Below, in pieces: positions 1,113 through 14,333 of a stretch of DNA of 24,000 bases (its first letter is position 1; each line of letters starts with the position of its first letter). The stretch spans positions 276,088 to 300,087 of the forward strand of contig NZ_JBANSP010000002.1 in assembly GCF_037167145.1 (NCBI RefSeq). Direction: 5' to 3'. A program made the translations under genes and the position numbers. The notes under the pieces were generated by a model. The model ran no database searches. It was not told where the DNA came from and was given only the letters and a program-made list of their open reading frames with translations. The DNA comes from Paenibacillus sp. YIM B09110. Lineage in GTDB: Bacteria; Bacillota; Bacilli; Paenibacillales; Paenibacillaceae.

Positions 1113-1198
1113 GCCGGGGTGGCGGAACTGGCAGACGCACAGGACTTAAAATCCTGCGGTGGGTGACCACCGTACGGGTTCGATTCCCGTCCTCGGCA
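1113..1198 (+). tRNA. tRNA-Leu (anticodon TAA), class II with a long variable arm; no encoded CCA
   Basis: The gccgggg/cctcggc acceptor stem, the acttAAaatc... loop with TAA, the variable arm gcggtgggtgaccaccgtac and the T arm gggttcgattccc are all present. Confidence 0.9.
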
Positions 1199-1203
1199 TC
1201 CTT
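1136..1203. repeat. attL: 68-bp direct repeat covering the 3' two thirds of tRNA-Leu plus 5 nt
   Basis: cgcacaggacttaaaatcctgcggtgggtgaccaccgtacgggttcgattcccgtcctcggcatcctt is identical base for base to 14266-14333. Confidence 0.9.
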
Positions 1204-1209
1204 TCAAAT

Positions 1210-1230
1210 CCTTGATATCTCAAGGTTTTT
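1210..1230 (+). terminator. Rho-independent terminator just inside the island, downstream of the reconstituted tRNA-Leu
   Basis: Perfect palindrome ccttgatatctcaagg (1210-1225) followed by ttttt. Confidence 0.5.
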
Positions 1231-1358
1231 CATGAACTACATATGTGTAGTTAAATGATAATCCTGTGTGCTAAATATAGCTGCACAGGATTCACGTATA
1301 ATACAGTAAACCTTCTTTGTAGCATCTGATTAAAATCAGATTACAATAGGAGGTTTTT

Positions 1359-2312
1359 TTGTTGTCTATGCGACTCACAAAAGTTACGAAGAAAGCGCCA
1401 GCTACAATGGAAGAAGCTTTAACACAGTTTATCAATTGGAAGAAAGCGAACAATTTGAGTGAACAAACAATTCTTGATTACACTACGCACGTAAACCTTC
1501 TCTTTAAACGTTATCCAAATGCCGCGCAGTCATATGAACTGCTTGAAAAATCAGTTTTTGAACACTTAGGGCAAGAAAATATTAAGCCAGCAACGTACAA
1601 TAATCGTCTTGTCTATTTGCGTAGTTTCTTCATGTGGTGTGTCGAGCAAGGTGTCTTATCTGATAATCCATTAGAAGGATTTAAAAAGCGAAAAGATGAG
1701 GGTAGAATAGTTCAAATTGATGAAAGTGTTCTTTCAGATCTACTTCAATTACCCAACCAAAGCACATATGCAGGTTTGCGCGACTATGCACTTCTACTTG
1801 TTTTCTTAGACAGTGGTATAAGACCGAAAGAAGCTTTTAGCCTGATGGAGTCTGATTACAATAATCGTGCGTATGAACTAGTAGTAGATGCAGACAAAGC
1901 TAAAACAAGAACATCACGAACCCTTCATATTATGCCTCAAACAGCAAAGGCAATAGATGAACTACTGTCAGTTCGACCTATAGAGTGGAAGGAAAGAGCG
2001 CCTATCTTTTGTACTAATGAGGGCAAACCACTAAATAGGCATACATGGGGTGATCGCATTGAAATGTATTGTAAGAAGCTTGGAACTCGTTTCCATCCTT
2101 ATGCACTACGTCATGCATTTTCAATTATGTTTTTGCGAGGCAAGGGTAATGCGTTTGCGCTACAAATGATGCTAGGTCATATAGATATGACAATGACTAA
2201 ACGATATGTCAGATTAACGAATAGTGATGTAAAAGAACAGCATACAATGGCTTCTCCAGTTAATAGAATCTTACCTCAAAATAAACGACTTAGAAATATC
2301 AGTAAGAAATGA
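1359..2312 (+). CDS. Tyrosine recombinase / phage-type integrase
   Basis: AGGAGG at 1348-1353. The start is TTG 1359/1362 or ATG 1368 (ambiguous by 9 nt). There is an N-terminal SAM-like core-binding region. The C-terminal catalytic signature reads ...GIRPKEA...HPYALRHAFS...LGHIDMTMTKRY (R..H-x-x-R..H..Y). The gene is adjacent to attL. Confidence 0.9.
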   Translation: MLSMRLTKVTKKAPATMEEALTQFINWKKANNLSEQTILDYTTHVNLLFKRYPNAAQSYELLEKSVFEHLGQENIKPATYNNRLVYLRSFFMWCVEQGVLSDNPLEGFKKRKDEGRIVQIDESVLSDLLQLPNQSTYAGLRDYALLLVFLDSGIRPKEAFSLMESDYNNRAYELVVDADKAKTRTSRTLHIMPQTAKAIDELLSVRPIEWKERAPIFCTNEGKPLNRHTWGDRIEMYCKKLGTRFHPYALRHAFSIMFLRGKGNAFALQMMLGHIDMTMTKRYVRLTNSDVKEQHTMASPVNRILPQNKRLRNISKK

Positions 2313-2764
2313 GAAAGAGAAGTATGGAAATTAGAGCTTATAAAGCCATGGTGGATGAGAAAACCAACTTTAGACAGATTAGCATTGCAGGATTACATTG
2401 TAAGCTACATAAGAGCATGAGGAACTACAGACACCAGACGCAGAGTCTAGAGGAAGGAAATAGACCGCTTACGAGCTGTTAAGAATGCCGTACTATTGCA
2501 ATTTCCTGAATATGATTGCTTATATGAGTATAATCATGATTTTAACGCTTTAGCCGCTAAATTTGGGCTTCTGAGAAGACTATATAAGGCATACGTATTC
2601 ATGTAAGTGGGAAATGACTATTAGACAGTTGTAACGCCGCTAATGGCGTTAGTGAGCGCGTAGGATCGGGATTAGAGGAGCTATCTAGGATCAATACGCT
2701 TATATGTCTTCCTGATAATGCAGACGAGGCAGGGGACAGGATTGATTTGCGATTGTTTAGCCGC

Positions 2765-2799
2765 TCAAAAGAAAAGAGCCTGTATTATTAGGCTCTTTT
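2765..2799 (-). terminator. Rho-independent terminator of the XRE gene
   Basis: Stem aaaagagcc (2772-2780) pairs with ggctctttt (2791-2799). A T-run follows on the minus strand, directly after the stop at 2803. Confidence 0.6.
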
Positions 2800-2802
2800 A
2801 CT

Positions 2803-3147
2803 TTACTTTTCTCTAAAGTTAAGCAGTAGATCAAGGATGTTATTAACTGTTTGCAGTTCCGAAAGTGGCAGATTGTTAACTTTGTTTATGATTGAATCTA
2901 CAGTATCAGCTTCTTTTGTCTTCCTTTTTGATTGAGCATTTGCGAATAGTTCCTCTAACGTTATGCCTAGTGCATCAGTTATTCTAATTAAACTTTCAAT
3001 TGTGGGCGATTTTTCAGCGCGTTCAACATCAGAAATATACGATGTAGAAAATGAAGCGCGGTGAGCTAATTCTTCTTGTGTGATACCTTTACGTTTACGA
3101 AATATGCGAATACGTTCACCAATTACTTTCCCGATTACATCACTCAT
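2803..3147 (-). CDS. XRE-family HTH transcriptional regulator (cI/Stl-like repressor candidate)
   Basis: ERIRIFRKRKGITQEELAHRASFSTSYISDVERAEKSPTIESL is a canonical HTH_3 motif. I chose the internal ATG at 3147 because GGAGG (3156-3160) lies 8 nt upstream. The track's TTG at 3198 has no RBS. Confidence 0.85.
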   Translation of the reverse strand: MSDVIGKVIGERIRIFRKRKGITQEELAHRASFSTSYISDVERAEKSPTIESLIRITDALGITLEELFANAQSKRKTKEADTVDSIINKVNNLPLSELQTVNNILDLLLNFREK

Positions 3148-3289
3148 AACTACCCCTCCTAACAATTTCACGTTATCGGAGCAGAACAAGTTATCCAATC
3201 GTCTAAAGTATAATATTTTCTATTTATATAGCCTATAGACTATATTTTTGTTACAATACTTTTGTCATCATCAAACTGGGGGGATATGG

Positions 3290-3700
3290 ATGAACTTTAA
3301 GTTATTGTTTGTAATTATCTTGTTAATGGTGTTCTTAGTTGGGTGTTCGTCAAATGATAGTAGTTCAGATGAAGTACTTGAAAAAACTAAGTATCTTTTC
3401 CAAGAAAATGTCTCTGAACCTGCAGATTTAATATCACTACATAATACAAAAGTGATAAAAGTTGAATCCACAAAGAATTACATACGTTACCAAGTGACAG
3501 GCAGGGCCAATTATGTTTGGGGCGAATCAGATTTTGATGTAATAGTACAGAAGGATTTATACAAAGATAAAGATGAAAAAAAGTGGTTTATGCCTGATTG
3601 TAATGTATGTATACCTAGAAAACAGATTGCTGATAACGACGAAGAAGCGAATGCAAGGGCAATTGATTTAGTATTTGAAGCAAGTAAACATTTGAAATGA
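3290..3700 (+). CDS. Putative lipoprotein (possible exclusion or surface protein)
   Basis: ATG at 3290 follows a GGGGGGA RBS. The N-terminus MNFKLLFVIILLMVFLVGCSS is a signal peptide with the lipobox L-V-G-C. The gene is divergent from the XRE gene. Confidence 0.7.
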   Translation: MNFKLLFVIILLMVFLVGCSSNDSSSDEVLEKTKYLFQENVSEPADLISLHNTKVIKVESTKNYIRYQVTGRANYVWGESDFDVIVQKDLYKDKDEKKWFMPDCNVCIPRKQIADNDEEANARAIDLVFEASKHLK

Positions 3701-3909
3701 TATAGCAATTAGAAAGCGCAAAATACTATTAGCGGTTTGCCTAACAAGGTGAGCTGCTTTTTTTGTTCTACGGCTTATATAAAAAAATCTCCTATGTGAG
3801 GAGTTTTGGATAGAGATTCTTAAATATAAGTATGAGCTTCACGATACCGCATAACTTTGCCTAATCGAAGAAGTTAAGTATTATACCAAACAAAAAAGGA
3901 GAAAAGAAA

Positions 3910-4104
3910 ATGGAAGAAATCGTTACAGCAAAGGTAGTTTGCGACAAGCTAAGTATATCCAAGCGTACCCTTTGCAAGTGGAAGAATGAAGGCTTACCGT
4001 CAATCAAATTGTCTTACAACATCGTCAGATATGATCTTATATCTGTTATGGAATGGGTAAAGGAAAGGAATAAGGAACAAAAAGGAGCAGAGACAGAGAA
4101 TTAA
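3910..4104 (+). CDS. Excisionase/MerR-like HTH DNA-binding protein (Xis or Cro-like candidate)
   Basis: AAAGGAGA RBS upstream. AKVVCDKLSISKRTLCKWKNEGLPSIKL...YDLISVMEWV fits the HTH_17/excisionase pattern. The protein is 64 aa. Confidence 0.65.
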   Translation: MEEIVTAKVVCDKLSISKRTLCKWKNEGLPSIKLSYNIVRYDLISVMEWVKERNKEQKGAETEN

Positions 4105-4119
4105 ACCAGAGGTCGAAAT

Positions 4120-4244
4120 TTGTACCAAGTCGCTACATAAGCGTAAAAATATATTATAAATTGTCCCTGAATGGTACAGCGATTGGTCAAATTTTGTATC
4201 AAATCGGTACACTGACTAGTCAAAACTTGTACCGAAATCGGACA
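4120..4244. repeat. Four 18-bp dyad-symmetric direct repeats (iteron or operator array)
   Basis: The copies are TTGTACCAAGTCGCTACA (4120), TTGTCCCTGAATGGTACA (4161), TTGTATCAAATCGGTACA (4194) and TTGTACCGAAATCGGACA (4227). Each has a TGTAYC..GRTACA half-site structure. Spacing is 41, 33 and 33 bp. Three copies share an upstream GTCRAAAY extension. Confidence 0.6.
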
Positions 4245-4343
4245 GATTTTGGGGTGCTTTAACAAATAGATTTATAACATAAATACATATAACAATATTA
4301 TATCTTTGCTTAGGCACAAGAATTAGGAGTGAGTGTAACAACT

Positions 4344-5615
4344 ATGAGTTTTATAAAAATTTATAATTATTTACTTGATAATGAAGCTAATCAAAAAGTA
4401 GAACAGATATACCTATATGCTATGCTCAAGGCAGATTATTCAATCTTTAATGGCTATACATCAACAACAATAACAATCCTTGCCCAAGGAAATGTATTAT
4501 CTACTACTAATACCAAAAGAAAGGTGAAACTAATAAAAGAGCTATTAGAACAATTGCAAGAAAGGAAAATCATACAGATAGATTATGAAGGCGAATTAGG
4601 AGCAAATACACCAATAATAATTAGGTTTCCTGATCTTGGAGGTCATGAGCAAATAACACCTGATATGTACTCACTGGCATCTTGCCCCGCCGAATTTTTC
4701 GTATTGGTCACAATCAAGAGATTTACCGGAGAGCCGTTCAACGGCTTTGAGAAAGCCAAAGATAGATGGTCAGATATACTTGGCTACGGTTCAAAGAACA
4801 CAGGAAACAAAATTATTAACAAGTTGGTTGAAGATAAAAAAATATACTGTGTTGAAGGAGAGAGGTACAGAGACAACAACGGATTGATTAAGCAACATTC
4901 TACCAAATGGTTTCTCAATAAACATAATCAAATAATGATTAGTGACGAAAAGAACGAAGAACTTATTTCTGTCGCCGCTGAGAATGAAGAAATAAAAGAT
5001 ATTTCCGCGACTAGTAATGCTAAAGACAAAATAACACAGAAAGAAAAGCCTAAAAAGCATAATCCTTCAGTTACAAATGCAAAATCAATTGAATGGGGGA
5101 ATTGGAACAACCTTAACCTTAGTGCATTCATTAAGGATGCTGACATTGAGTTATATGTTCTACAAATGCACATTGAAGAATTTATATCAATTGCTAACCA
5201 GAAGCTAAACAGTATTCCTGATAAAGCCAGATTCAATATTATGAATAAAATTAAGAAGTCATTGATCCAGAAGGAACGAAAAGAAAATAAGAATGCCGTT
5301 GTTATCAATGGTGAAGCTGTTTCCGTTGATAAAAGTAATATCGAGAGTTATAGGCAGTATCTGATAGATAACCTTAATTCTGGTTGTGATGGAGTTGAAG
5401 TGTTAATTTTTAACTACGGGGAAAACAAGAAAACAACGATTAGCCTAAAAAGAATGGCTGTTAGCGTTGGTTTCGAGTTTATGCTTTCAAATGAAGTCAT
5501 TGACTTCACAGTAGCTAGCTACATCAATGTCATAAAGGCAGACAAAGAATTTGATTCCTTGATATTTAACGATACCAAAGGAAGCATTCGAAACCGATTT
5601 CATATTGCTTGCTAA
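4344..5615 (+). CDS. Hypothetical protein; possible replication initiator or replisome-organiser-like protein
   Basis: Long ORF directly downstream of the repeat array. The N-terminus FIKIYNYLLDNEANQKVEQIYLYAMLK resembles the RepA_N / phage replisome-organiser N-terminal pattern, though weakly. The start is uncertain (GTG 4329 sits inside the RBS, so ATG 4344 is preferred). Confidence 0.45.
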   Translation: MSFIKIYNYLLDNEANQKVEQIYLYAMLKADYSIFNGYTSTTITILAQGNVLSTTNTKRKVKLIKELLEQLQERKIIQIDYEGELGANTPIIIRFPDLGGHEQITPDMYSLASCPAEFFVLVTIKRFTGEPFNGFEKAKDRWSDILGYGSKNTGNKIINKLVEDKKIYCVEGERYRDNNGLIKQHSTKWFLNKHNQIMISDEKNEELISVAAENEEIKDISATSNAKDKITQKEKPKKHNPSVTNAKSIEWGNWNNLNLSAFIKDADIELYVLQMHIEEFISIANQKLNSIPDKARFNIMNKIKKSLIQKERKENKNAVVINGEAVSVDKSNIESYRQYLIDNLNSGCDGVEVLIFNYGENKKTTISLKRMAVSVGFEFMLSNEVIDFTVASYINVIKADKEFDSLIFNDTKGSIRNRFHIAC

Positions 5616-5798
5616 TCGATTCGTCCCGATACATTTACTGTTAGTTGCTGATGTAGTAAGAATTTGAGAAGTTTTGTCGTCCTCATGATTGTAAATGACG
5701 GACGGCGAATGTGGATTAGAATATGATTATTTTACGCTTTATTGTGATAAAGAATTATTTAATGTTGCGCTGATACTAAAATAAAAAAGGTGAAAAAA

Positions 5799-6344
5799 AT
5801 GAATGAAATTTGGAGAGAAGTAGTTGGTTATCAGGGATACTATGAAGTATCAAATCTAGGGGATGTTAGAAGTTTAGACAGGATTGTTTATAAAGAACAA
5901 AATGGAAAGGTTGTGGGAACGCCAGTAAAGGGAAGAATGTTAAAGACAGGTATATGTAATAGAGGATATTCAAGGTTACGACTAAGCAAAGATGGGAAGT
6001 CAACTACATACCGAGTTCATAGGCTTGTGGCTGCCGCCTTTATCGATAATCCTGATAATAAATCAGAAGTTAATCATATAGATGGCAATAAGCTCAATAA
6101 CGCGATCTGGAATCTTGAATACTGCACAAAAATGGAAAATGTTCAACATGCTTGGGAAATTGGATTGGTGAATACTTGCACAATAAAAATTAGCTATGAT
6201 GATTTGTTGTTTATATTAGGACATTATGAGTTCGGGAGTAGAGAATACGGGACTTGTGCATTGGCAAGGAAATTTGGTGTAAACCCTACTACCATTTGGG
6301 GTATTGTTAATGGCAAAAGAGATGTGAACCATTATGTAAGTTAA
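5799..6344 (+). CDS. HNH homing endonuclease (NUMOD4 + HNH_3 + C-terminal HTH)
   Basis: The N-terminus MNEIWREVVGYQGYYEVSNLGDVRS is a NUMOD4 motif. VHRLVAAAFIDNPDNKSEVNHIDGNKLNNAIWNLEYCTKMENVQHA is an HNH_3 motif. ARKFGVNPTTIWGIVNGKR is an HTH. ATG 5799 follows AAAGGTGA. Confidence 0.85.
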   Translation: MNEIWREVVGYQGYYEVSNLGDVRSLDRIVYKEQNGKVVGTPVKGRMLKTGICNRGYSRLRLSKDGKSTTYRVHRLVAAAFIDNPDNKSEVNHIDGNKLNNAIWNLEYCTKMENVQHAWEIGLVNTCTIKISYDDLLFILGHYEFGSREYGTCALARKFGVNPTTIWGIVNGKRDVNHYVS

Positions 6345-6350
6345 ATTGCA

Positions 6351-6381
6351 GAGACAGGATTATAATTTCCTGTCTTTTTTC
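6351..6381 (+). terminator. Rho-independent terminator after the HNH gene
   Basis: Stem gacagga (6353-6359) pairs with tcctgtc (6368-6374), followed by tttttt. Confidence 0.6.
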
Positions 6382-6686
6382 TTATCTTGTCGACTCCAGA
6401 AATACCACTAGTAGTACTATTAGTAGCATATTTTTCTCAATTGAAAGAAGATTAAGTAGTAGGAACAAAACTAATTACATTTAAACGTCTTGAAAGAACT
6501 TCAACCTTTCAAGTACATTTTCTATTCAATAGCTTTTTCTAGTGAGAGTCCCTTTGCCAGGCTCTCACATACGTAGGGTTACCTTACGATTTTGGGTTCA
6601 ACAAATTCTCTATTCTTCCTCCGAATGAAGGGGAGATCCAGTCCCTTTTACGTTTTATATTAATAACCCCGAAAGGAATTAATGAT

Positions 6687-7019
6687 ATGGATAATTATAA
6701 AATTGCTTATGGTACAGAAAGAATAAAGCCAATATTGAGTAGTAAAGACCTAGATAAACTTATTGCTGAGTCACTAAAAGAAGAGCCATCTAAGCTTGCT
6801 AAAACGGTTTCTGAGCCACAGAATAAGCCAAAGCATAAGCCGGCTAGAGAGCCAGTTACAACGCCAATTAATAAGCTTACAGACGCTTTCAAACACTTGA
6901 AAACAAAAACAATTAAAACAACAACTCAGGATGCATCAGAAGCTTTCGCTCACTTGAGACCAAAGGTCAATAAATTAATAGAAACCGAACCATTCGCCCA
7001 TATACGAGGAGGTAAATAA
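6687..7019 (+). CDS. Hypothetical protein with three internal x-F-x-H-[LI] repeats
   Basis: GAAAGGAA RBS and ATG at 6687. The product is Lys/Pro/Thr-rich. The repeats are DAFKHLK, EAFAHLR and EPFAHIR. Confidence 0.5.
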   Translation: MDNYKIAYGTERIKPILSSKDLDKLIAESLKEEPSKLAKTVSEPQNKPKHKPAREPVTTPINKLTDAFKHLKTKTIKTTTQDASEAFAHLRPKVNKLIETEPFAHIRGGK

Positions 7020-7023
7020 GTCA

Positions 7024-7407
7024 ATGGAGAAAGTGAAGGTATTAAGTAGCTACATCATGGAGGGCTATACGCTGTTCAAAGTGAAGCCATTAGGATTAAT
7101 TGAGTATGGCATTAAGAAGGATATATATTGTTTTGATTATGCTTCTTTGGCTGATCAATGGGGAATTAGTATGGAAGTACTTGATAAGGTTGCTTCGTAT
7201 GACATAACATTTAGTGATTCTATGTATGTATCATTTAATGAAACGGAGTCAGGGTTAGTTAGAACATATATGATGAATGCCAACGCAACTCCAAATTTAT
7301 TAAGAAAATTGAAGGATTCAACTTTTAAACCTAATAGGGATATTATTAGAGAATTTGCTGTAATAGCAATGCTAGTTGATAAAGCAAGGGGGTATAAAAA
7401 TGGTTAA
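7024..7407 (+). CDS. Hypothetical protein
   Basis: GAGGAGG at 7006-7012 and ATG at 7024. It begins 4 nt after the previous stop and overlaps the next gene by 8 nt (ATGGTTAA). No motif recognised. Confidence 0.55.
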   Translation: MEKVKVLSSYIMEGYTLFKVKPLGLIEYGIKKDIYCFDYASLADQWGISMEVLDKVASYDITFSDSMYVSFNETESGLVRTYMMNANATPNLLRKLKDSTFKPNRDIIREFAVIAMLVDKARGYKNG

Positions 7408-7573
7408 AGTATCGTTGACACTTGATGATTTCTCAGACAAGATGTTGAAACTTATCGCTATGGAAAATGGTGTTTCTCGCTCTGAGGTTATAAGAAGCTT
7501 AGTAAAAGCAAGAGCTAGTAATGAAAACGGTATACTTCGAGGGTTTGCAGATTTAATTAGTAAAGATAAGTGA
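7400..7573 (+). CDS. Ribbon-helix-helix (CopG/Arc-type) DNA-binding protein
   Basis: MVKVSLTLDDFSDKMLKLIAMENGVSRSEVIRSLV matches the beta-strand / helix-helix RHH pattern. AAGGGGG RBS at 7386-7392. Confidence 0.7.
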   Translation: MVKVSLTLDDFSDKMLKLIAMENGVSRSEVIRSLVKARASNENGILRGFADLISKDK

Positions 7574-7588
7574 GTATAGATGAAAGTA

Positions 7589-7613
7589 CAACCCCTAGTT
7601 TAGCTAGGGGTTG
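7589..7613. terminator. Bidirectional hairpin terminator between convergent genes
   Basis: caacccctag (7589-7598), a 5-nt loop, then ctaggggttg (7604-7613), followed by tttctg. Confidence 0.6.
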
Positions 7614-7648
7614 TTTCTGCTTGATTCATCGATTATCATAATGAATTT

Positions 7649-8605
7649 TTATGTTGTTTTATAATAGGGGTTTTTCTCAACTATAGCTGATTGAATTTTC
7701 GTTCTTAAAAATTCAACAAAATCATTTTCATTTTCTAAACAAGATACTATTTCATATAAGTCACATAATACAACAACTGCTTTTGCAAGTGCTCCTTTAG
7801 TCGTAGTAATCGCTGGTTCTGTAAATCCACTAACAGATATATATATCCCCCTTGCTTGACCACGAAGAAAAACACCCATAAGATGATTGGAAATTTCATT
7901 CTTCCCAACTGGTTTTCCCCACCACTTCATTTCAACTAGGTAGTAATCAGAATCTATCTTGATAACGCCGTCGATTTGTTCAATTATCCCTTCGTTTTCT
8001 TCTCCATTTATAGAGAAGGATTCTTTGACGAGAATATCATGATAATTAAACAAGTTATTTAAGACATTTTCAAATAGCTTACCTCTTTTGTGTGGGTCAT
8101 TTAACTTGACTAATTCACTTATCTCAAGCTTTATTTTTTCTAGTTCACGTTTTCGGTTGTTAACTTTTTCAACTTGTTCAAGGTATGTTTGTTTATGTTT
8201 TCTGGCTAATTCATTTTTTTCTCTTTCCATTCTTGAAAAAGCATCTTTTACTTTGATTACTTGACGTATCTCGGCGACATACCCTTTGGCTTTTATTCTG
8301 TCATTATCCCAACAAGATTCATAACTGTCGAATTCGACTATTCTTTTTAATAATTCTCGTCGGATTTTAAGGAACATGTCATTGTTCTGTTCGTTGATTC
8401 TAGTTACCATAATCCTAGTGATTTCGTACTTACTTATGCTATCTTTGTTATTGTATACTTTTATTGAAATATCATTTAATAACGATTCACTCACACCAGC
8501 ACCGCGAAAGAATAAAAGTACATCTTGTTTAGAACGATTTAATAAAGGAATTGTATCAATTAGTAAGCTAATTAGTTCTGGAGGATAATGATAAATAGTT
8601 ATCAT
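7649..8605 (-). CDS. Mrr_cat-type PD-(D/E)xK restriction-endonuclease-like protein with an N-terminal helical/coiled-coil domain
   Basis: The C-terminal half reads KRGKLFENVLNNLF...IEQIDGVIKIDSDYYLVEMKWWGKPVGKNEI...GIYISVSGFTEPA. This fits the F-E, D and E-x-K pattern of Mrr-like nucleases. A charged coiled-coil stretch (EREKNELARKHKQTYLEQVEKVNNRKRELEKIKLEISEL) lies in the middle of the protein. ATG 8605 has an AAGGGTG RBS and is preferred over GTG 8617. Confidence 0.75.
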   Translation of the reverse strand: MITIYHYPPELISLLIDTIPLLNRSKQDVLLFFRGAGVSESLLNDISIKVYNNKDSISKYEITRIMVTRINEQNNDMFLKIRRELLKRIVEFDSYESCWDNDRIKAKGYVAEIRQVIKVKDAFSRMEREKNELARKHKQTYLEQVEKVNNRKRELEKIKLEISELVKLNDPHKRGKLFENVLNNLFNYHDILVKESFSINGEENEGIIEQIDGVIKIDSDYYLVEMKWWGKPVGKNEISNHLMGVFLRGQARGIYISVSGFTEPAITTTKGALAKAVVVLCDLYEIVSCLENENDFVEFLRTKIQSAIVEKNPYYKTT

Positions 8606-8725
8606 AGATTCAAGCACCCTTCGAAATTTAATAACACATATTCCCTATAACTAATCCTTCAAGTATACTATAATTTAGAATAAATCCCAATAGTATATGT
8701 GCTGTCATGAGGAGGATAACTTGTT

Positions 8726-10042
8726 ATGTCAATTTCTGATAAAGTAAAAAGCGGTTACTGGTCAATTTCGACACAAAAGCATTTGAAAGTCTTTAAAAGT
8801 GAAGCGACTGGCTTATCGCAATTAGGTAATCTCAATTTGACTGGGAAAGTAGGAAGATTCCTAGGTGTTATAAGAGGCAATGGACAAATAACTGATATGA
8901 ATAAGCTTGAATTAATGGCTAACAGTGTAGGCATTAATAATAAGTTGGAACTCCTTAAGATTGTACTTCCTGAGTTGGAATCAGCATCAGATAAAAGAAT
9001 TGAATTAATGAGAGATACTATAGGGAATATAACTGGTATTGCCGAATATGTCTACGATAACCCTACAGTACTAGGCATTTCAGGTCAGGTATTTGAAAAT
9101 CAACATCCAACAGATGTAGAAAGAATAGTAATAAGGACTATGGATGAAACGAAAAAGATTCCTTATGCGCAAAGCCATCTTATTCAATTACTTATCCAGC
9201 AAGGATTTAGCGAAAGAGATGTTTCATTATCAATTGCATTGCAAAATAATTTTAAGTTAATTCGAGTTTTAAATAAAATGAAGAATCGTGAACCTATTAT
9301 TAGCAATGAGTACGTCTGGGGCGATAATCATGAGAAAATTGCTATGGCTGTCTCAGGACTTAATATGTTTGAAAAAGACACTTTAAGAGAAATAATAGAT
9401 TCGATTCAAAATTTCCAAGGATTTCCTTTAGAGAAAATAGCACCTGAGGCAAGCAACTTACTCCTAATGGCCAAAAAAACTGGTATGATAAATCCTACTA
9501 CAATTGTTTCAACAAGAGGTTTTCAGAAAGATTTTGGTTTTAGTACAAACTTGTTACAACCTGAGCAATATAACAATGATATCCTTGATGATGTTAAATT
9601 GTTACTTGCTTCGATTCGTTTTGGAGAAAATTACACTCCTTATTCGACAATTAATGACCCTGAAAAATTCCTGTCAAAGTTAATTCAATATGGGGATATC
9701 GGTCCTCATGATGCAAATGCAACAGATTACACTTTGCTTGAGAAAAAGGGTATTGTAAGAGTTGTAAGAAAACAAAAGTTTAATTCCTACTATGGGACAT
9801 ATCGAACTGGTCCATGTCTTGAATTGATAAGAACAGATGTCGCAAAGGAAGCTTTAAACATTATTAAGAATCCAAACTACACAATGAACAATGATGCAGA
9901 AATTACAGACTTCGGTTCAATGATGGATGTAGGGATTTTTGTAACTCCTGAAGAAGAAAGAATGAATATGGCTGAAATGCCTGAAACTTTGAAAGAAATC
10001 GAAGAACATACTCTAAGAGTACTTAGAGGAGAAAATATATAA
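8726..10042 (+). CDS. Hypothetical 438-aa protein with no recognisable motif; first gene of a two-gene operon
   Basis: Strong GAGGAGGA RBS at 8709-8716 and ATG at 8726. The frame stays open through AT-rich DNA for 1.3 kb, and the next gene starts 16 nt after the stop. Confidence 0.7.
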   Translation: MSISDKVKSGYWSISTQKHLKVFKSEATGLSQLGNLNLTGKVGRFLGVIRGNGQITDMNKLELMANSVGINNKLELLKIVLPELESASDKRIELMRDTIGNITGIAEYVYDNPTVLGISGQVFENQHPTDVERIVIRTMDETKKIPYAQSHLIQLLIQQGFSERDVSLSIALQNNFKLIRVLNKMKNREPIISNEYVWGDNHEKIAMAVSGLNMFEKDTLREIIDSIQNFQGFPLEKIAPEASNLLLMAKKTGMINPTTIVSTRGFQKDFGFSTNLLQPEQYNNDILDDVKLLLASIRFGENYTPYSTINDPEKFLSKLIQYGDIGPHDANATDYTLLEKKGIVRVVRKQKFNSYYGTYRTGPCLELIRTDVAKEALNIIKNPNYTMNNDAEITDFGSMMDVGIFVTPEEERMNMAEMPETLKEIEEHTLRVLRGENI

Positions 10043-10058
10043 GAATGGCGGTGGAATC

Positions 10059-11510
10059 TTGTCTGATTTAAATAATAAGCCACAGTCAATTGAGAAAGAT
10101 CTAGAGAGTATGCCTCCTCAGAATGGTTTGAGTGATGGACAACAACAACAAAGTTCTGAGGGTAAAACGTCAAATGAGCCTGTAGTTCAGTCCGAACTTA
10201 ATTTAGATATAATCGATAAAGGGGAAGGTAGTTCTACAATACCTTCTCCTAATTTGCCAATTCAAGAAAGTAAACAATATCAGAGTAAATCGGTGGAGAC
10301 TTATAACAAGGGAACAAAAAAGAAGCCTCGTGCTCAAAGCTACAACAGAAAAAAACCAGTACAATCAGAAATAAATAAAAATACAACCGAAGAGAAGACT
10401 CTACAAAAGGGATATTTGTTGGAATACCGAATGAAAAGGCTATTATTTCATATGGGATATTTCCCTAAAATCGGGATAGATGTTCGTACTTCCTATGATG
10501 ATGCTTCGGATAAGATTACCGATTTAGATGTCTATGGTTTATATGTTCATCGTGATTTTACCAGTAAGTCCTTATGGGTAGATTGCAAATCTGGTTCAGT
10601 TCAAATTCATGATAGAATAACTTGGATTAAAGGCATCATGAGTGAAATAACAGTTAACGATATGATTTTTGTTGTAAATAGTGCACGTACATCAGTGAAG
10701 CAATACGCAAGGAAAGCAGGAATACAACTATTAGACATAAATATTGTTGATAAACTTGAAGCTGATTATAAAATCAATCAAGACGACTGGCGAGGTTCTT
10801 GGAATCCAGATACACAGCATAATAAAATTAACCAGTTATCTAAATTTAGTATTCCAACTAACGATTTGTATAAGAGAATTGCAAAATATATTTCATCTGA
10901 TTACTGGGTAATTGATAATTATTCCAAAGTAAAGAAGACCTTATCAGGAATTAGGGATTTATCAACCTATAACAATTTAAAACTAAACGAGGAACAAACA
11001 AAAACTATTCAATGGTCTATCTATGAATTAACTAATCTGTTCTTATTAGCCGTACTTGATATAGCAAAAGAGCTATACTATTTTAATGATAGTGAAAAAC
11101 GTGAAACGGTAGTTGAAGGATTAAGTTCGGGTGATATACCCAATAGAAAAAGGAAGGAGATTTTTGACTCGGCGTTTAGGGTAGCATATAACGTAGTTAA
11201 AACTCAAATACCTGATTTTAACATACCTTCGAAAATGCCTTCATTTAATATAACGCCACCGAATTACACTGAATCGTTTATTGATTTAATTTTAAGAATA
11301 ACAAATAATCCAATGTATTATTATGATTTATTGAGATTTTTAGACTTCATTTTTATGGAATATGACCTTCAATCAAAGGTAATTAGCGAAGCTGATGTGC
11401 GCACTCTGTTTAAAAATTATGATGAATTGTTAATTGGAGCTAAAACTTTATTGCATTTCATATGTCAAGTAACTAATATCCCTCGTTCAATGTACCGAAT
11501 TATAAACTAG
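10059..11510 (+). CDS. Hypothetical protein: low-complexity N-terminus, Mrr-like PD-(D/E)xK nuclease core and an unknown helical C-terminal half
   Basis: Residues 1-115 are Q/S/K/N-rich. Residues 118-232 read GYLLEYRMKRLLFHMGYFP...ITDLDVYGLYV...LWVDCKSG...ARKAGIQLLD. This reproduces the order of Mrr_cat elements (E, D, D-x-K, then A..GI.L.D). The start is TTG 10059 (GGTGGA RBS) and is uncertain. Confidence 0.6.
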   Translation: MSDLNNKPQSIEKDLESMPPQNGLSDGQQQQSSEGKTSNEPVVQSELNLDIIDKGEGSSTIPSPNLPIQESKQYQSKSVETYNKGTKKKPRAQSYNRKKPVQSEINKNTTEEKTLQKGYLLEYRMKRLLFHMGYFPKIGIDVRTSYDDASDKITDLDVYGLYVHRDFTSKSLWVDCKSGSVQIHDRITWIKGIMSEITVNDMIFVVNSARTSVKQYARKAGIQLLDINIVDKLEADYKINQDDWRGSWNPDTQHNKINQLSKFSIPTNDLYKRIAKYISSDYWVIDNYSKVKKTLSGIRDLSTYNNLKLNEEQTKTIQWSIYELTNLFLLAVLDIAKELYYFNDSEKRETVVEGLSSGDIPNRKRKEIFDSAFRVAYNVVKTQIPDFNIPSKMPSFNITPPNYTESFIDLILRITNNPMYYYDLLRFLDFIFMEYDLQSKVISEADVRTLFKNYDELLIGAKTLLHFICQVTNIPRSMYRIIN

Positions 11511-11554
11511 CTAAAGATATGCCAAAAGATAATATATATTTAATCTACATGTAT

Positions 11555-11590
11555 TCACTACTTTGCTAAATGCGAAGTAGTGATATTTTT
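11555..11590 (+). terminator. Rho-independent terminator after the two-gene operon
   Basis: Stem tcactactt (11555-11563) pairs with aagtagtga (11575-11583), followed by tattttta. Confidence 0.55.
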
Positions 11591-11604
11591 ATGGAGGGGT
11601 AACT

Positions 11605-11814
11605 TTGCTGAGAAAACCGATTAAGTCTGACTCGGAAATAGAAGTGTGTGTTCAGTTGCAAAGTACTGTGCGGATATGGATGAACAACGAGGTAGAGGAT
11701 GTTGGAGTTATTGAAAAATATGATAATGACACAATACAAATCAATGGTGATTACTATATTCGAAACAATTGCGTGATAGAAGTTATTAATCAGAACTTTG
11801 TATTAATAAAATAA
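11605..11814 (+). CDS. Small hypothetical protein (69 aa)
   Basis: GGAGGGG at 11593-11599 lies 5 nt upstream of TTG 11605. The gene is immediately upstream of the KAP NTPase gene. No motif recognised. Confidence 0.5.
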   Translation: MLRKPIKSDSEIEVCVQLQSTVRIWMNNEVEDVGVIEKYDNDTIQINGDYYIRNNCVIEVINQNFVLIK

Positions 11815-11885
11815 CTTTCGACGTATTTAAAAATCAAATATTGAGTCATTGTTGTATGAATACTTTATGTGAAAGGAAGAGAATA

Positions 11886-13910
11886 GTGACCGGACAATCA
11901 GATTCGAAGTTTCTTCTAGAGAGCGTACTAGAATATGTTAAAAATGAAAGAGCCAACTATGGATTAATGATAAATGGTGAGTGGGGAAGTGGTAAGACAT
12001 ACTTCTGGGACAATGTACTTAGTCCAAAAATTGAAAGTATTAATGGAAAACCACTAAAGACTGTATATGTATCACTGTATGGAGTTTCTACTACTGAGGA
12101 GATAAGCAAAAGGATTTGCTATGAAGTTTACGCATCTGCACTGAAAAAAAAAGGACATTTAAAAAAACTAATTGATAGTAAGGTAGGCAATGCACTTCCT
12201 GAATTGAGTAAGGTAATTTTGAACTTTGGTGGTAAACAAATGGGTATCGATCCTATTGGAAGTTCAAGTATTGACTGGGATAAATTATACTCGCTCAAAA
12301 ATAAAGTGTTATGTTTTGATGATTTGGAAAGAGCTAACCTAGAGGTTTCGGAAATACTAGGGTACATAAATAATTTTGTTGAACATGACGGTGTTAAAAC
12401 AATTATTATTTGTAATGAAAAAGAAGTTAATTCTAAAGTGTACTCTGAGAATAACGAGTTAAAAAAACTTACTGCAACATACTTATTAAATATTGAGGGA
12501 AAGTTAGGTGAAAAAGAAGATACAAAATCAAGACAATCAGAATTAAAGCAATCTACAAATCAAATAATTGATGATACTATTCAGATGCTTTTTAGTAAAA
12601 GTAATGATTATAAGCATATAAAAGAGAAGCTTATTGGAAAAACGTTATTATATTCTTCAAATGAGAATGATATTATTAACAATATAATTTCTATTAATGA
12701 ACATTACAAATCATATGATTATATTCTAACAGGTAGCGATATCATTATTGAAATCTTTCAAAAAAGTAAGACTAAGAATTTTAGGATTTTAATTCAGGCA
12801 ATTGATGATTTTGAAAGGATATTTCAGAAATTGAAATCTGATTATCCTGTTATTGATCAAGGAATAGTGAAGTCAATATTTATTTTCACATTAATTTTGT
12901 CCTTTGAAATAAAGTCAGGAAAGTTACCCAATAAAGAATTGTTGGAAATTAATTCAGATCTAGATTTTCAACAGCGTATTATTATGGACAAGATGGATAA
13001 AAAGTCATCATATATCACTAGCTTACTTTCAACGTATCGTGGAGTACATACTGAATCTGGCATAGTGTTTTTTCAGTTTGTTAAGGAGTTAGTTGTAGAT
13101 GGTATTCTTAATACAGAATTTTTTAAAGTTGAAATCGACAAACAAGTTAAAGATAAAGAAAGAAAAGAAGTTCCTGGTTATGTGAAAATAATTAAACAAG
13201 GATACTGGGAGTTAACAAATGATGATTTTAACGTTGCAGTTGCCGATTCATATGAAGCAATAAAAAGTGGTAAGATGAGTATTAGATTTTACTTTTCAGG
13301 TTTTATTGTATTTTTGAAGTTGATGGAACTTGAACTTATAAATGAAGATATAACTTCATTAAAGGAGTTATTTATAAATGGATTAGAGAAGATAGTAGAA
13401 AAGGCCAATATAGAAGATATCGAAACCTCATTCACTCGATTTGGAAAACCAACAAATTATGAGGATGACATTAACGAGATAAAACAGAAAATTATTGAAA
13501 CTAGAAAAAAATTGGAAGTTAAAGAAGATGAGCATATTGCTAATGAATTATTAGAGTCTTTAAAGAATAACATTCAAGAGTATTACTTTGCTGTTGACAG
13601 AAAGCATTGGAACAAACCATTATTTGAGCATTTGGACATGAATGACGTGGCTAGAATCATTTTAATTAAAAGTAATAAGGACATAAACTTATTTGCTAAT
13701 ATTCTATTCGAGCATTATAAGGAAATGAGTGAAGCTCTAAAGCCTGATCTACCTAAATTAGACGAACTTCAAGCAATATTAATAAATCACGTAAGCGAGG
13801 AGCTGGCACAAAATCGAAATTCCTTAACAGTCGCAAACCTTAAGGAAATCGTTGAAGTCATTAGTATCATTAAGACTGCAAATGCAGATTCAGAAACTCC
13901 AAATCCATAA
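11886..13910 (+). CDS. KAP-family P-loop NTPase (soluble form with no membrane insertion)
   Basis: Walker A is GLMINGEWGSGKTYFW (nt 11976-11999). Walker B is VLCFDDLER (nt 12306-12332), followed by TIIICNEKE. These match the KAP signatures G-x-W-G-S-G-K-T and hhhhDDLDR. The start is uncertain: GTG 11886 follows the GAAAGGAAGAG RBS, and ATG 11856 or TTG 11841 are alternatives. Confidence 0.85.
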   Translation: MTGQSDSKFLLESVLEYVKNERANYGLMINGEWGSGKTYFWDNVLSPKIESINGKPLKTVYVSLYGVSTTEEISKRICYEVYASALKKKGHLKKLIDSKVGNALPELSKVILNFGGKQMGIDPIGSSSIDWDKLYSLKNKVLCFDDLERANLEVSEILGYINNFVEHDGVKTIIICNEKEVNSKVYSENNELKKLTATYLLNIEGKLGEKEDTKSRQSELKQSTNQIIDDTIQMLFSKSNDYKHIKEKLIGKTLLYSSNENDIINNIISINEHYKSYDYILTGSDIIIEIFQKSKTKNFRILIQAIDDFERIFQKLKSDYPVIDQGIVKSIFIFTLILSFEIKSGKLPNKELLEINSDLDFQQRIIMDKMDKKSSYITSLLSTYRGVHTESGIVFFQFVKELVVDGILNTEFFKVEIDKQVKDKERKEVPGYVKIIKQGYWELTNDDFNVAVADSYEAIKSGKMSIRFYFSGFIVFLKLMELELINEDITSLKELFINGLEKIVEKANIEDIETSFTRFGKPTNYEDDINEIKQKIIETRKKLEVKEDEHIANELLESLKNNIQEYYFAVDRKHWNKPLFEHLDMNDVARIILIKSNKDINLFANILFEHYKEMSEALKPDLPKLDELQAILINHVSEELAQNRNSLTVANLKEIVEVISIIKTANADSETPNP

Positions 13911-14265: not shown

Positions 14266-14333
14266 CGCACAGGACTTAAAATCCTGCGGTGGGTGACCAC
14301 CGTACGGGTTCGATTCCCGTCCTCGGCATCCTT
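14266..14333. repeat. attR: 68-bp direct repeat, a 3' fragment of tRNA-Leu(TAA) lacking its 5' third
   Basis: Identical to 1136-1203. The upstream sequence (aggat) differs from the tRNA 5' part, so no complete tRNA exists here. Confidence 0.9.

Follow-up and report, generated by a model that had tools for sequence, protein, structure and literature searches.

Three unrelated defense-type modules, one of them an undescribed candidate two-gene nuclease system, at the cargo end of a tRNA-integrated island in Paenibacillus sp. YIM B09110

Five open reading frames (ORFs), here called A to E, lie side by side at the distal end of a mobile island in Paenibacillus sp. YIM B09110 and raise the question of how many defense systems they represent. 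A preliminary description of this DNA treated them as one candidate undescribed system but left the number of systems (one, two, or three) open; the evidence presented here leads to three. The cargo end consists of three unrelated defense-type modules, of which only the pair B-C is undescribed. The best explanation, to which we assign a probability of about 0.55, is a small defense island of 6.3 kb with three independent modules, namely, A (module 1), B-C (module 2), and E (module 3).

The window, i.e., the whole 24,000-nt stretch of DNA that was analyzed, contains an island with a GC content of ~0.33, compared with 0.46 to 0.50 in the flanks. The island ends are a perfect 68-nt direct repeat, the left copy of which (attL, positions 1136 to 1203, plus strand) is the 3' part of a tRNA-Leu(taa) gene and the right copy of which (attR) lies at positions 14266 to 14333 on the same strand. 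The repeat and the low GC content bear out the proposed tRNA integration, and the view that the variable end of the island holds defense-type cargo is supported as well. The island integrase is encoded by a plus-strand ORF (1359 to 2312) that looks by eye like a tyrosine recombinase (R...HxxR...Y region), and a homolog with 51% identity lies near a B-C pair elsewhere (locus L004). All five cargo ORFs were found where they had been placed. A bidirectional terminator-like hairpin (7588 to 7614) separates the core genes of the island from the 3' end of A, which occupies positions 7649 to 8605 on the minus strand. On the other side of a divergent intergenic region (8606 to 8725), in which an AGGAGG Shine-Dalgarno sequence precedes the start of B, the plus strand carries B (8726 to 10042) and C (10059 to 11510); the gap of 16 nt between them confirms the predicted operon divergent from A. 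The terminator predicted after C is a terminator-like hairpin with a T run (11555 to 11583, plus strand) that closes the B-C operon, and it is followed on the plus strand by D (11605 to 11814) and E (11856 to 13910, with the NCBI start).

Cooperation of all five genes in one NTPase-plus-nucleases system has their adjacency in this one island as its sole evidence, and we regard it as extremely improbable. D and E are missing from all 19 other B-C loci, the terminator separates C from D and E, E homologs are solitary in prophages and on plasmids, and the match of E to a single-gene candidate family spans the whole protein. Comparative genomics thus leads us to reject a single five-gene system, and the original proposal that these genes form one undescribed system falls with the KAP gene, which never accompanies B-C in those 19 loci.

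The identification of E as a KAP P-loop NTPase was correct, given its match to Pfam KAP_NTPase (PF07693; E = 3.7e-7; 30.1 bits against a cut-off of 20) and the presence of GEWGSGKT (Walker A) and FDDLER (Walker B). The frame is open from position 11841; the NCBI start is the ATG at 11856 (684 aa), and the best Shine-Dalgarno sequence is at the GTG at 11886. Transmembrane helices inserted in the P-loop domain are the classical hallmark of KAP proteins, and E lacks this insertion. Its portrayal as free of transmembrane segments holds between Walker A and Walker B, where there is no hydrophobic 19-mer, but is weakened by a borderline segment at residues 337 to 355, the best hydrophobic segment overall (Kyte-Doolittle score, 1.75). 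PDC-S49 is a PADLOC single-gene defense candidate that is named in no searchable paper; its model PDLC05031 matches E (E = 1.1e-81) from residue 31 to residue 675, covering positions 15 to 614 of 624, and two further PDC-S49 models match as well. E also matches PHROG 4740 (2e-61), and its homologs occur alone, in prophages and on plasmids; in Bacillus prophages they lie just downstream of the endolysin gene, as prophage morons. In an antiphage validation from 2026, single-gene KAP NTPases with unknown C-terminal regions were found to protect E. faecalis (PMC13552941). A class that defends on its own, together with the PDC-S49 match, speaks against the KAP gene as part of one undescribed five-gene system. 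In architecture (a KAP_NTPase domain plus a long unknown region) and in its mobile carriers, E resembles PDC-S49, EF_KAP and its relatives (PMC13552941), and PifA of the F plasmid; EF_KAP differs in being modeled with two transmembrane helices. E may be pictured as a single-gene, PDC-S49-type defense in which NTP hydrolysis would power the uncharacterized effector region at the C terminus, ~480 aa of unknown function.

D, a 69-aa ORF with a good Shine-Dalgarno sequence that is neither annotated nor named by NCBI, had been called an orphan. This stands insofar as no homolog was found in any set searched: D is a singleton cluster, and tblastn against plasmids and phages gave no match at E values up to 1. 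A role as a conserved KAP partner was rejected on these grounds and because no D-like ORF lies upstream of nine E homologs. D probably belongs to no conserved unit and is probably nonfunctional.

The 318-aa product of A is an Mrr_cat protein, as had been read from the sequence (core, EQIDG...VEMKW); residues 209 to 288 match Pfam Mrr_cat (PF04471; E = 3.4e-7; 30.8 bits) above the curated cut-off of 21. From the N to the C terminus it has a conserved domain, a middle part resembling a coiled coil, and the catalytic core, in which D212 and E225-x-K227 are invariant or nearly so in 35 homologs. The PADLOC type IV model (mREase_IV) matches A weakly (E = 0.0025). With the Mrr_cat match, the invariant D...ExK, and the single gene, A is like Mrr and the Mrr_cat type IV restriction endonucleases; it is unlike Mrr in its N-terminal 200 residues, whose conserved domain and coiled-coil-like stretch match no Pfam or PDB family, the Mrr_N winged helix included. 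In the reading preferred here, A would be a self-contained, type IV-like DNA endonuclease. Its family numbers >1,186 clusters across phyla, is annotated as “restriction endonuclease,” and has a single-gene architecture.

We then have to ask whether A belongs with B-C in a three-gene system, at least in Paenibacillaceae, in which the genes share the divergent promoter region, are co-regulated, and act together. A homologs (55 to 59% identity) stand divergently beside B-C in L008 and L010, and the A/B intergenic region, which contains conserved blocks, is partially conserved in these two loci; L008 is not an independent observation, since its island and that of the window are of one family. A homologs are also on contigs with B or C matches in at least five further assemblies, the contigs being of lengths 19993, 14089, 3846, 335519, and 10645. 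In L001, a distant A-like gene (23 to 27% identity, same architecture) precedes B in the same orientation, and in L017 and L022 other genes with restriction endonuclease folds (DUF4365 and PDDEXK_2) come immediately before B. Against this, A is missing from most B-C loci, including L009, although the L009 B is 96% identical to the L010 B, and the loci with A do not form a single clade on the B tree. The A family is also ~5 times larger than the B family and taxonomically far wider, and A stands alone elsewhere (L030 to L032; Peribacillus, Brevibacillus reuszeri, and a cyanobacterium). An A-B-C system is therefore unlikely. Nevertheless, in seven or more cases the closest A homologs are on one contig with B-C, so A may not be fully independent of B-C in Paenibacillaceae.

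The pair B-C, in contrast to A and E, is held together wherever it was found complete. C follows B directly in all 14 complete genome loci, and the linkage extends to 19 of 19 complete loci when Bacillota, Actinomycetota plasmids, and Vibrio plasmids are counted, with B-to-C gaps of -44 to +60 nt; contigs of B. cereus and C. perfringens show the same order. Identities of B and C to the window proteins co-vary between loci (84/72, 64/52, 60/47, and 25/17%). On Streptomyces, Vibrio, and Rubrobacter plasmids, B is only 23 to 25% identical, and still a C-like gene lies downstream that aligns with the C profile (hhalign probabilities of 98.8, 97.4, and 95.7) and retains E...D...(D/E)xK. The pair occurs in the Bacillus cereus group, Clostridium perfringens, C. 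botulinum, Streptomyces, and Vibrio parahaemolyticus plasmids, and B, previously taken for an orphan, has a family of 243 clusters at 90% identity and 415 representatives at 50% identity. The preliminary description had asked whether B and C homologs co-occur with each other, with the KAP gene, and within defense islands. The first is the case in every complete locus and the second in 0 of 19 other loci. As for the third, known defense systems are usually the immediate neighbors of B-C in the loci examined: the Hachiman genes HamAB directly adjoin it in L002, L012, and L013, the Lamassu genes LmuA/LmuB in L001 and L010, a type I restriction-modification (RM) system plus PDC-M26A in L003, PDC-M30 in L011, and an ABC-3C-like set in L018, with NACHT and DUF4365 proteins in other loci.

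The placement of the 438-aa plus 483-aa operon outside known systems is supported by the model searches. The B and C families have no Pfam, NCBIfam, PADLOC, or PHROGs match. A PADLOC scan of the window proteins returned nothing for B, C, or D, and the models of known multigene systems (Hachiman, Gabija, Septu, Lamassu, Shedu, PARIS, Dnd/Ssp, Wadjet, and others) matched none of A to D. Among 83 diverse members of the B and C families, PADLOC gave only four single-member matches (E ≥ 0.004), and we found no description of B-C in the literature searched. The lack of a defense-model match would also fit a nonimmune role, in which B-C serves a mobile element (by helping to maintain a plasmid or island, in recombination, or in competition with other elements) and merely travels with defense genes. 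Its presence on conjugative or mobilizable plasmids of Clostridium, Bacillus, Streptomyces, and Vibrio, on integrase-bearing islands, and in one case on a prophage-like contig points the same way. We nonetheless consider such a role quite improbable. The carriers are unrelated in type (a tRNA island, a recombinase-trio element, a Tn7-like neighborhood, plasmids, and a prophage), the immediate neighbors are unrelated defense systems and not replication or transfer genes, and defense cargo is usually recognized by just such a combination of an intact, strongly conserved nuclease site and a patchy distribution.

The nuclease site is in C, which is composed of a variable K/N/S/E-rich tail (residues 1 to 112; positions 10059 to 10394), a nuclease domain (residues 113 to 226; 10395 to 10736), and an all-helical C-terminal domain (residues 227 to 483; 10737 to 11507). 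The nuclease core is a PD-(D/E)xK fold, as judged from the AlphaFold topology, the Foldseek matches, and the invariant E122, D155, D175, and K177. The AF2 model has a pLDDT of >90 over residues 117 to 483 and an alpha-beta-beta-beta-alpha-beta topology, and Foldseek aligned the modeled nuclease domain with Card1 and EndoMS/NucS at a probability of 1.0. E122, D155, D157, D175, and K177 are invariant in 65 to 67 of 67 homologs. The earlier reading of C as a second Mrr-like core was not sustained: neither C nor its 67 homologs have a Pfam match, hhalign against the A family gave a probability of 0.1, and profile comparison rules C out as an Mrr-family protein. What C has in common with Card1/Can2, Cap4, and NucS/EndoMS is the PD-(D/E)xK fold over ~100 residues (Foldseek probability, 0.96 to 1.0), a match of the catalytic domain only with 14 to 18% sequence identity; C is unlike them in having no CARF, SAVED, or NucS N-terminal domain.

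For B, the prediction is an acidic protein built as an array of some four winged helices, an assignment that derives from its secondary structure and weak Foldseek matches. The model (pLDDT, 80.6) begins with a basic N-terminal helical hairpin, continues with four helix-helix-helix-strand-strand units resembling winged helices, and ends, after a disordered linker, in a conserved acidic C-terminal helix (tail charge, -8). Its fold neighbors are only multi-winged-helix proteins, weakly matched (Foldseek, E ≥ 0.01), and a fold search against BFVD gave nothing significant. Profile or single-sequence searches of solved structures likewise gave nothing significant for A, B, C, or E. B has no sequence link to DndG, SspB, or FokI: a B profile search of PDB sequences did not retrieve FokI, PADLOC on 55 diverse B-family members gave no significant match (DndG and SspB models included), and Pfam matched none of 62 members. 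Mean column identity is 64% for B and 42% for C, making B the more conserved partner, and the median pI values are 5.5 for the B family and 8.5 for the C family.

We infer that the B and C products most likely act as one complex, in which the acidic C-terminal helix of B, on its flexible linker, probably docks on the basic nuclease C. C would be the DNA-cutting effector, working through the PD-(D/E)xK site E122/D155/D175-x-K177, and B the subunit for recognition and regulation, which would govern the time or place of cleavage by C. Since it has neither an NTPase nor a methyltransferase, B-C is expected to act like a type IV or type IIS-like restriction enzyme that is split in two and has no methylase, and its target may be foreign DNA bearing a mark or structure absent from the host. 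We see about an even chance that B-C is an undescribed antiphage or antiplasmid system, present in several phyla, in which a highly conserved, acidic four-winged-helix B is the gate or guide of a PD-(D/E)xK nuclease and neither an NTPase nor a methyltransferase nor a known signaling molecule takes part. Mrr-, DUF4365-, or PDDEXK_2-type nucleases would then recur as optional upstream partners.

The same features would suit a sensor/inhibitor-effector pair of the abortive-infection or toxin-antitoxin type, in which B restrains C, its acidic tail serving as a DNA mimic, until a phage cue frees C for indiscriminate DNA degradation. The opposite pI values of the two families and the tail charge of B agree with such restraint, the regulator-first, nuclease-second order and tight coupling follow type II toxin-antitoxin logic, and nothing in the pair, be it a methyltransferase or an NTPase, provides for discrimination between self and non-self. 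In Hachiman and PARIS, too, a large partner restrains a nuclease. On the other hand, B, with 438 aa in four predicted domains, far exceeds classical antitoxins in size, and it is the slower-evolving member of the pair, while rapid evolution is usual in sensors and antitoxins. We hold this alternative to be possible but clearly the less probable. An acidic, highly conserved B is unusual for a DNA-targeting or phage-sensing subunit, and an inhibitor or a scaffold fits at least as well.

With respect to known enzymes, the putative restriction enzyme B-C can be compared with two groups. FokI-type enzymes, END nucleases, and DpnI/Mrr-style enzymes combine multiple winged helices with PD-(D/E)xK domains, as is predicted for B-C, and like B-C need no NTPase and lie in defense islands, and the methylase-less, type IIS-like END nucleases act as defense without a partner methyltransferase (PMC12191111). 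B-C differs from FokI-type and END enzymes in that the functions are split over two polypeptides, of which B is acidic with about four predicted winged-helix units and C bears, in addition, a helical domain of 260 aa and a basic tail that varies; no sequence match or significant fold match to FokI was found. The second group comprises multi-wHTH recognition modules paired with restriction endonuclease domains, as described for FokI, DndG, and SspB (PMC10853773). In its predicted array, B is like DndG/DptG and SspB, which are stand-alone proteins with 2 to 4 wHTH domains thought to recognize the target of their nuclease partner. However, DndFGH and Ssp have ATPases and helicases and a phosphorothioate link, neither of which B-C has, and the wHTH proteins of that study are described as evolving rapidly, whereas B is highly conserved.

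The new part of this island is therefore the B-C pair, a candidate nuclease system without an NTPase or a methyltransferase. If it defends, two genes make up a compact nuclease system whose sensor architecture is new to study, and the PADLOC, Pfam, and NCBIfam models searched would all miss it. How a nuclease that has no methylase or NTPase spares the host genome is a question common to several recently found systems, and a conserved, soluble pair of proteins that presumably form a complex would be a tractable case for it. In genome annotation, B-C offers a clean marker pair for defense islands, and the island as a whole warns that adjacent cargo genes need not be one system.

An origin of B or C as phage proteins was considered and rejected, as a search of 50,697 phage records retrieved no B match and only a single contig in IMG/VR carries the gene. 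Fusion of B to known domains was rejected likewise: of ten distant or longer members, a Pfam domain (Pretoxin-HINT) was present in just one, a protein of 859 aa.

All five ORFs that the preliminary description had combined into one candidate undescribed defence system were found in the window: A, an Mrr_cat nuclease gene (7649-8605, minus strand); B, encoding 438 aa (8726-10042, plus strand); C, a nuclease gene encoding 483 aa (10059-11510, plus strand); D, a 69-aa ORF (11605-11814, plus strand); and E, a KAP P-loop NTPase gene (11856-13910, plus strand). The window proteins correspond to WP_337098666 to WP_337098669 at 100% identity. The same description placed these genes in a tRNA-integrated island, and this placement stands. 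GC content is ~0.33 within the island versus 0.46 to 0.50 in the flanks, the low-GC stretch begins directly after a tRNA-Met, tRNA-Met, tRNA-Leu(taa) array, and a perfect 68-nt direct repeat of the 3' part of tRNA-Leu lies at both ends (1136-1203 and 14266-14333). Together, these features indicate that the island is real and spans ~13.1 kb. It contains an integrase-like ORF (1359-2312), and terminator-like hairpins (7588-7614 and 11555-11583) lie on either side of the block formed by A and the two-gene pair B-C. The grouping of the five genes into a single system did not survive comparison with loci from other genomes, plasmids, and prophages, as D and E were absent from every other B-C locus examined and A was also found alone.

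The B-C pair is the well-defined unit. B had been considered an orphan, but 243 homologous clusters were found, with members of ~436 aa that are all named "hypothetical," and a B profile search of 1.84 billion representatives recovered 415 proteins at E values up to 1e-3, nearly all of 420 to 440 aa. C is represented by 122 clusters, which have ~370 conserved C-terminal residues in common and a variable N terminus. Neighborhood linkage of the two genes, which the preliminary description had singled out for checking, is present: C lies directly after B in every one of the 14 complete loci taken from species-representative genomes, and contigs of the B. cereus group and of C. perfringens show the same order. 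B-like genes with 21 to 26% identity are carried on plasmids of Streptomyces, Rhodococcus, Rubrobacter, Arthrobacter-group species, and Vibrio parahaemolyticus. On the three plasmids inspected, the next gene overlaps the end of B or directly follows it, and these next genes aligned with the C profile (hhalign probabilities of 98.8, 97.4, and 95.7) and keep the E...D...(D/E)xK residues. Across 19 loci, the gap between B and C ranged from -44 to +60 nt, and the divergence of B ran in parallel with that of C. The constant linkage, short gap, and parallel divergence therefore point to an old, co-inherited pair, and the two genes are probably translationally coupled. One 859-aa metagenomic representative (P0507) joins a B-like segment (profile positions 142 to 345) at its N terminus to a Pretoxin-HINT domain, which is characteristic of polymorphic toxins; the fusion may be real or may have arisen during assembly.

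The AlphaFold2 (AF2) model of C has a mean pLDDT of 81 and exceeds 90 over residues 117 to 483. Residues 1 to 112 (window 10059-10394) are predicted to be disordered; this tail, in which K, N, S, and E are strongly overrepresented, ranges in length from 0 to 131 aa in the family, some members having no tail. It is followed by an alpha-beta-beta-beta-alpha-beta domain (residues 113 to 226) and an all-helical domain (residues 227 to 483). For the middle domain, Foldseek gave matches to the nuclease domains of Card1, EndoMS/NucS, Cap4, Cdn1, and Ecl18kI with probabilities up to 1.0 and E values of at least 0.013. The core had been described as Mrr-like, a label not upheld by profile comparison, which gave no sequence likeness to Mrr. 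Residues E122, D155, D157, D175, and K177 are invariant, and an active nuclease is therefore the most likely identity of C. The B model (mean pLDDT of 80.6) begins with a basic helical hairpin, continues with four helix-helix-helix-strand-strand units, and ends with a disordered linker (residues 386 to 413) and a conserved C-terminal helix (residues ~408 to 433). Its fold neighbors, all weak, are only multi-winged-helix proteins (RPC62/82, TFIIIC tauB, ScpB, Nse1/3, and ESCRT-II). B is the more conserved partner, with a mean column identity of 64% versus 42% for C.

B, C, and D had no match in Pfam, NCBIfam, PADLOC (PADLOC-DB 2.0.0 for B-C), or PHROGs. Individual Pfam scans of 62 B and 67 C homologues gave no consistent match, a PADLOC scan of 83 diverse B and C members, distant ones included, gave nothing, and profile searches of PDB sequences with B and C gave no significant relative. 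No description of the pair was found in the searchable literature. Both components of B-C, a winged-helix array and a PD-(D/E)xK nuclease, are familiar; their arrangement here is so far undescribed.

The two proteins most likely act together: in the proposed complex, C would cut DNA and B would set when or where this happens. B-C could be a split restriction-like enzyme without a methyltransferase, its winged-helix array recognizing foreign DNA. There are precedents: FokI, DndG, and SspB pair multi-wHTH recognition modules with REase domains (PMC10853773), and END nucleases without a methylase target hypermodified phage DNA (PMC12191111). Alternatively, and also in line with the data, B might block C until a phage cue releases it. 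That reading is unlikely, but it is kept alive by the charge pattern, B being acidic (family median pI of 5.5, tail charge of -8) and C basic (median pI of 8.5). We slightly prefer the split restriction-like enzyme, because the pairing of multi-wHTH and REase modules is an established restriction logic and because B evolves slowly.

The immediate neighbors of B-C vary by locus and are mostly recognized defence systems: Hachiman HamA/HamB (L002, L012, and L013), Lamassu LmuA/LmuB (L001 and L010), an LmuB-like protein/PDC-M68B (L004), a type I RM system with PDC-M26A (L003), PDC-M30A/B (L011), a 1,931-aa NACHT protein (L012), and a DUF4365 nuclease (L017), the last with a PemK-family toxin gene and Tn7-like genes (TniQ, rve, and TniB) downstream. 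A pooled PADLOC scan of 132 neighboring ORFs matched 281 models at E values up to 1e-8. The carriers are unrelated to one another and include a tRNA island, a recombinase-trio element, conjugative plasmids, and one prophage-like contig. Varied defence neighbors on unrelated carriers are the usual signature of defence cargo, and we infer from this sequence context, with defence-island enrichment judged from ~20 loci, that B-C is such cargo. The pair is well delimited, occurs in several phyla and in pathogens, and is tractable by experiment. A complete Hachiman system adjoins B-C in three genomes that are unrelated to one another: those of a Paenibacillus, a Firmicutes MAG, and an Odoribacter-labelled MAG (L002 12902-16561, L012 13610-16785, and L013 466-4478). 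The two systems may be recurrent partners, or their adjacency may be a coincidence within defence islands. In the B. cereus group (L018 to L021, ~3245-13404), B-C is carried by an element with two adjacent tyrosine recombinases and a DUF6262 gene, inserted between radC and mreB, with an ABC-3C-like set (Metallophos, MC6, and AAA_23/DUF2326) following.

A (318 aa) is a typical nuclease of a known kind, with a Pfam Mrr_cat match above the cut-off and the NCBI name "restriction endonuclease," and a profile search of PDB sequences gave no significant relative. Its family comprises >1,186 clusters, all of ~318 aa, from Bacillota, Cyanobacteria, Desulfuromonadota, Bacteroidota, Chloroflexota, and others, and family members stand by themselves in Peribacillus, Brevibacillus reuszeri, and Trichocoleus. 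Could A nevertheless be an accessory of B-C? Its closest homologues recur beside the pair, divergent in L008 and L010, matching lengths of metagenome contigs suggest that A and B-C share a contig in five further assemblies, and L001 has an A-like gene, 23 to 27% identical, upstream of B. However, L008 belongs to the same island family as the window, the A-bearing loci are not monophyletic in the B tree, and L009 lacks A even though its B is 96% identical to that of L010. An accessory role is quite improbable, and we take A to be an independent module that often lies next to B-C. A PD-(D/E)xK-type nuclease gene lies immediately upstream of B in 6 of ~20 contexts, from different families (three Mrr_cat, one 23%-identical A-like, one DUF4365, and one PDDEXK_2); examples are window 7649-8605, L001 8838-9818, L017 8817-9755, and L022 5863-6729.

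E has a Pfam KAP_NTPase match and matches the PADLOC single-gene defence candidate PDC-S49 over its full length (E = 1.1e-81) and PHROG 4740 (E = 1.7e-61); a single-sequence search of PDB sequences gave no significant relative. No transmembrane helices were found inside the P-loop domain, in agreement with the preliminary description; E has one stretch of borderline hydrophobicity, residues 337 to 355. Homologues with 27 to 36% identity, most of them spanning the full length, are found in Bacillus phage PHBA67-T and 11 IMG/VR contigs, and others on Bacillus plasmids are annotated "P-loop NTPase fold protein." A conserved 354-aa ORF, taken by eye as an endolysin (amidase), precedes the homologue in 8 of the 9 upstream regions read; a position after the endolysin gene is typical of a prophage moron. 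In Bacillus prophages L029 and L033 to L038 (~2700-6000), KAP/PDC-S49 homologues 31 to 35% identical to E lie ~200 nt 3' of the highly conserved 354-aa gene, at the prophage end. D has no NCBI annotation and no homologue was found, nor was a D-like ORF seen upstream of E homologues. The candidate family to which E belongs is already catalogued, and its class was validated in 2026. E would most likely act alone, with NTP hydrolysis by the KAP NTPase controlling the 480-aa C-terminal region, as demonstrated for EF_KAP and for three KAP proteins from metagenomes (PMC13552941).

The remaining island (1204-7573) is 41 to 51% identical to a Paenibacillus cymbidii island (L008 2389-9859) that has A-B-C without a KAP gene. 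The conserved genes, called by eye only, include a divergent XRE-like repressor, a 428-aa protein, a 184-aa HNH/NUMOD-like protein, and 127-aa and 65-aa ORFs, and the overall layout resembles a satellite or PICI-type element. A 21-nt near-repeat (ACTG-G-GGATATGGATGAAC; 19 of 21 positions identical) occurs in the start region of a lipoprotein-like ORF (3248-3700) at 3275-3295 and inside D at 11665-11685; both copies encode ...IWMN..., and the near-repeat is probably a chance event.
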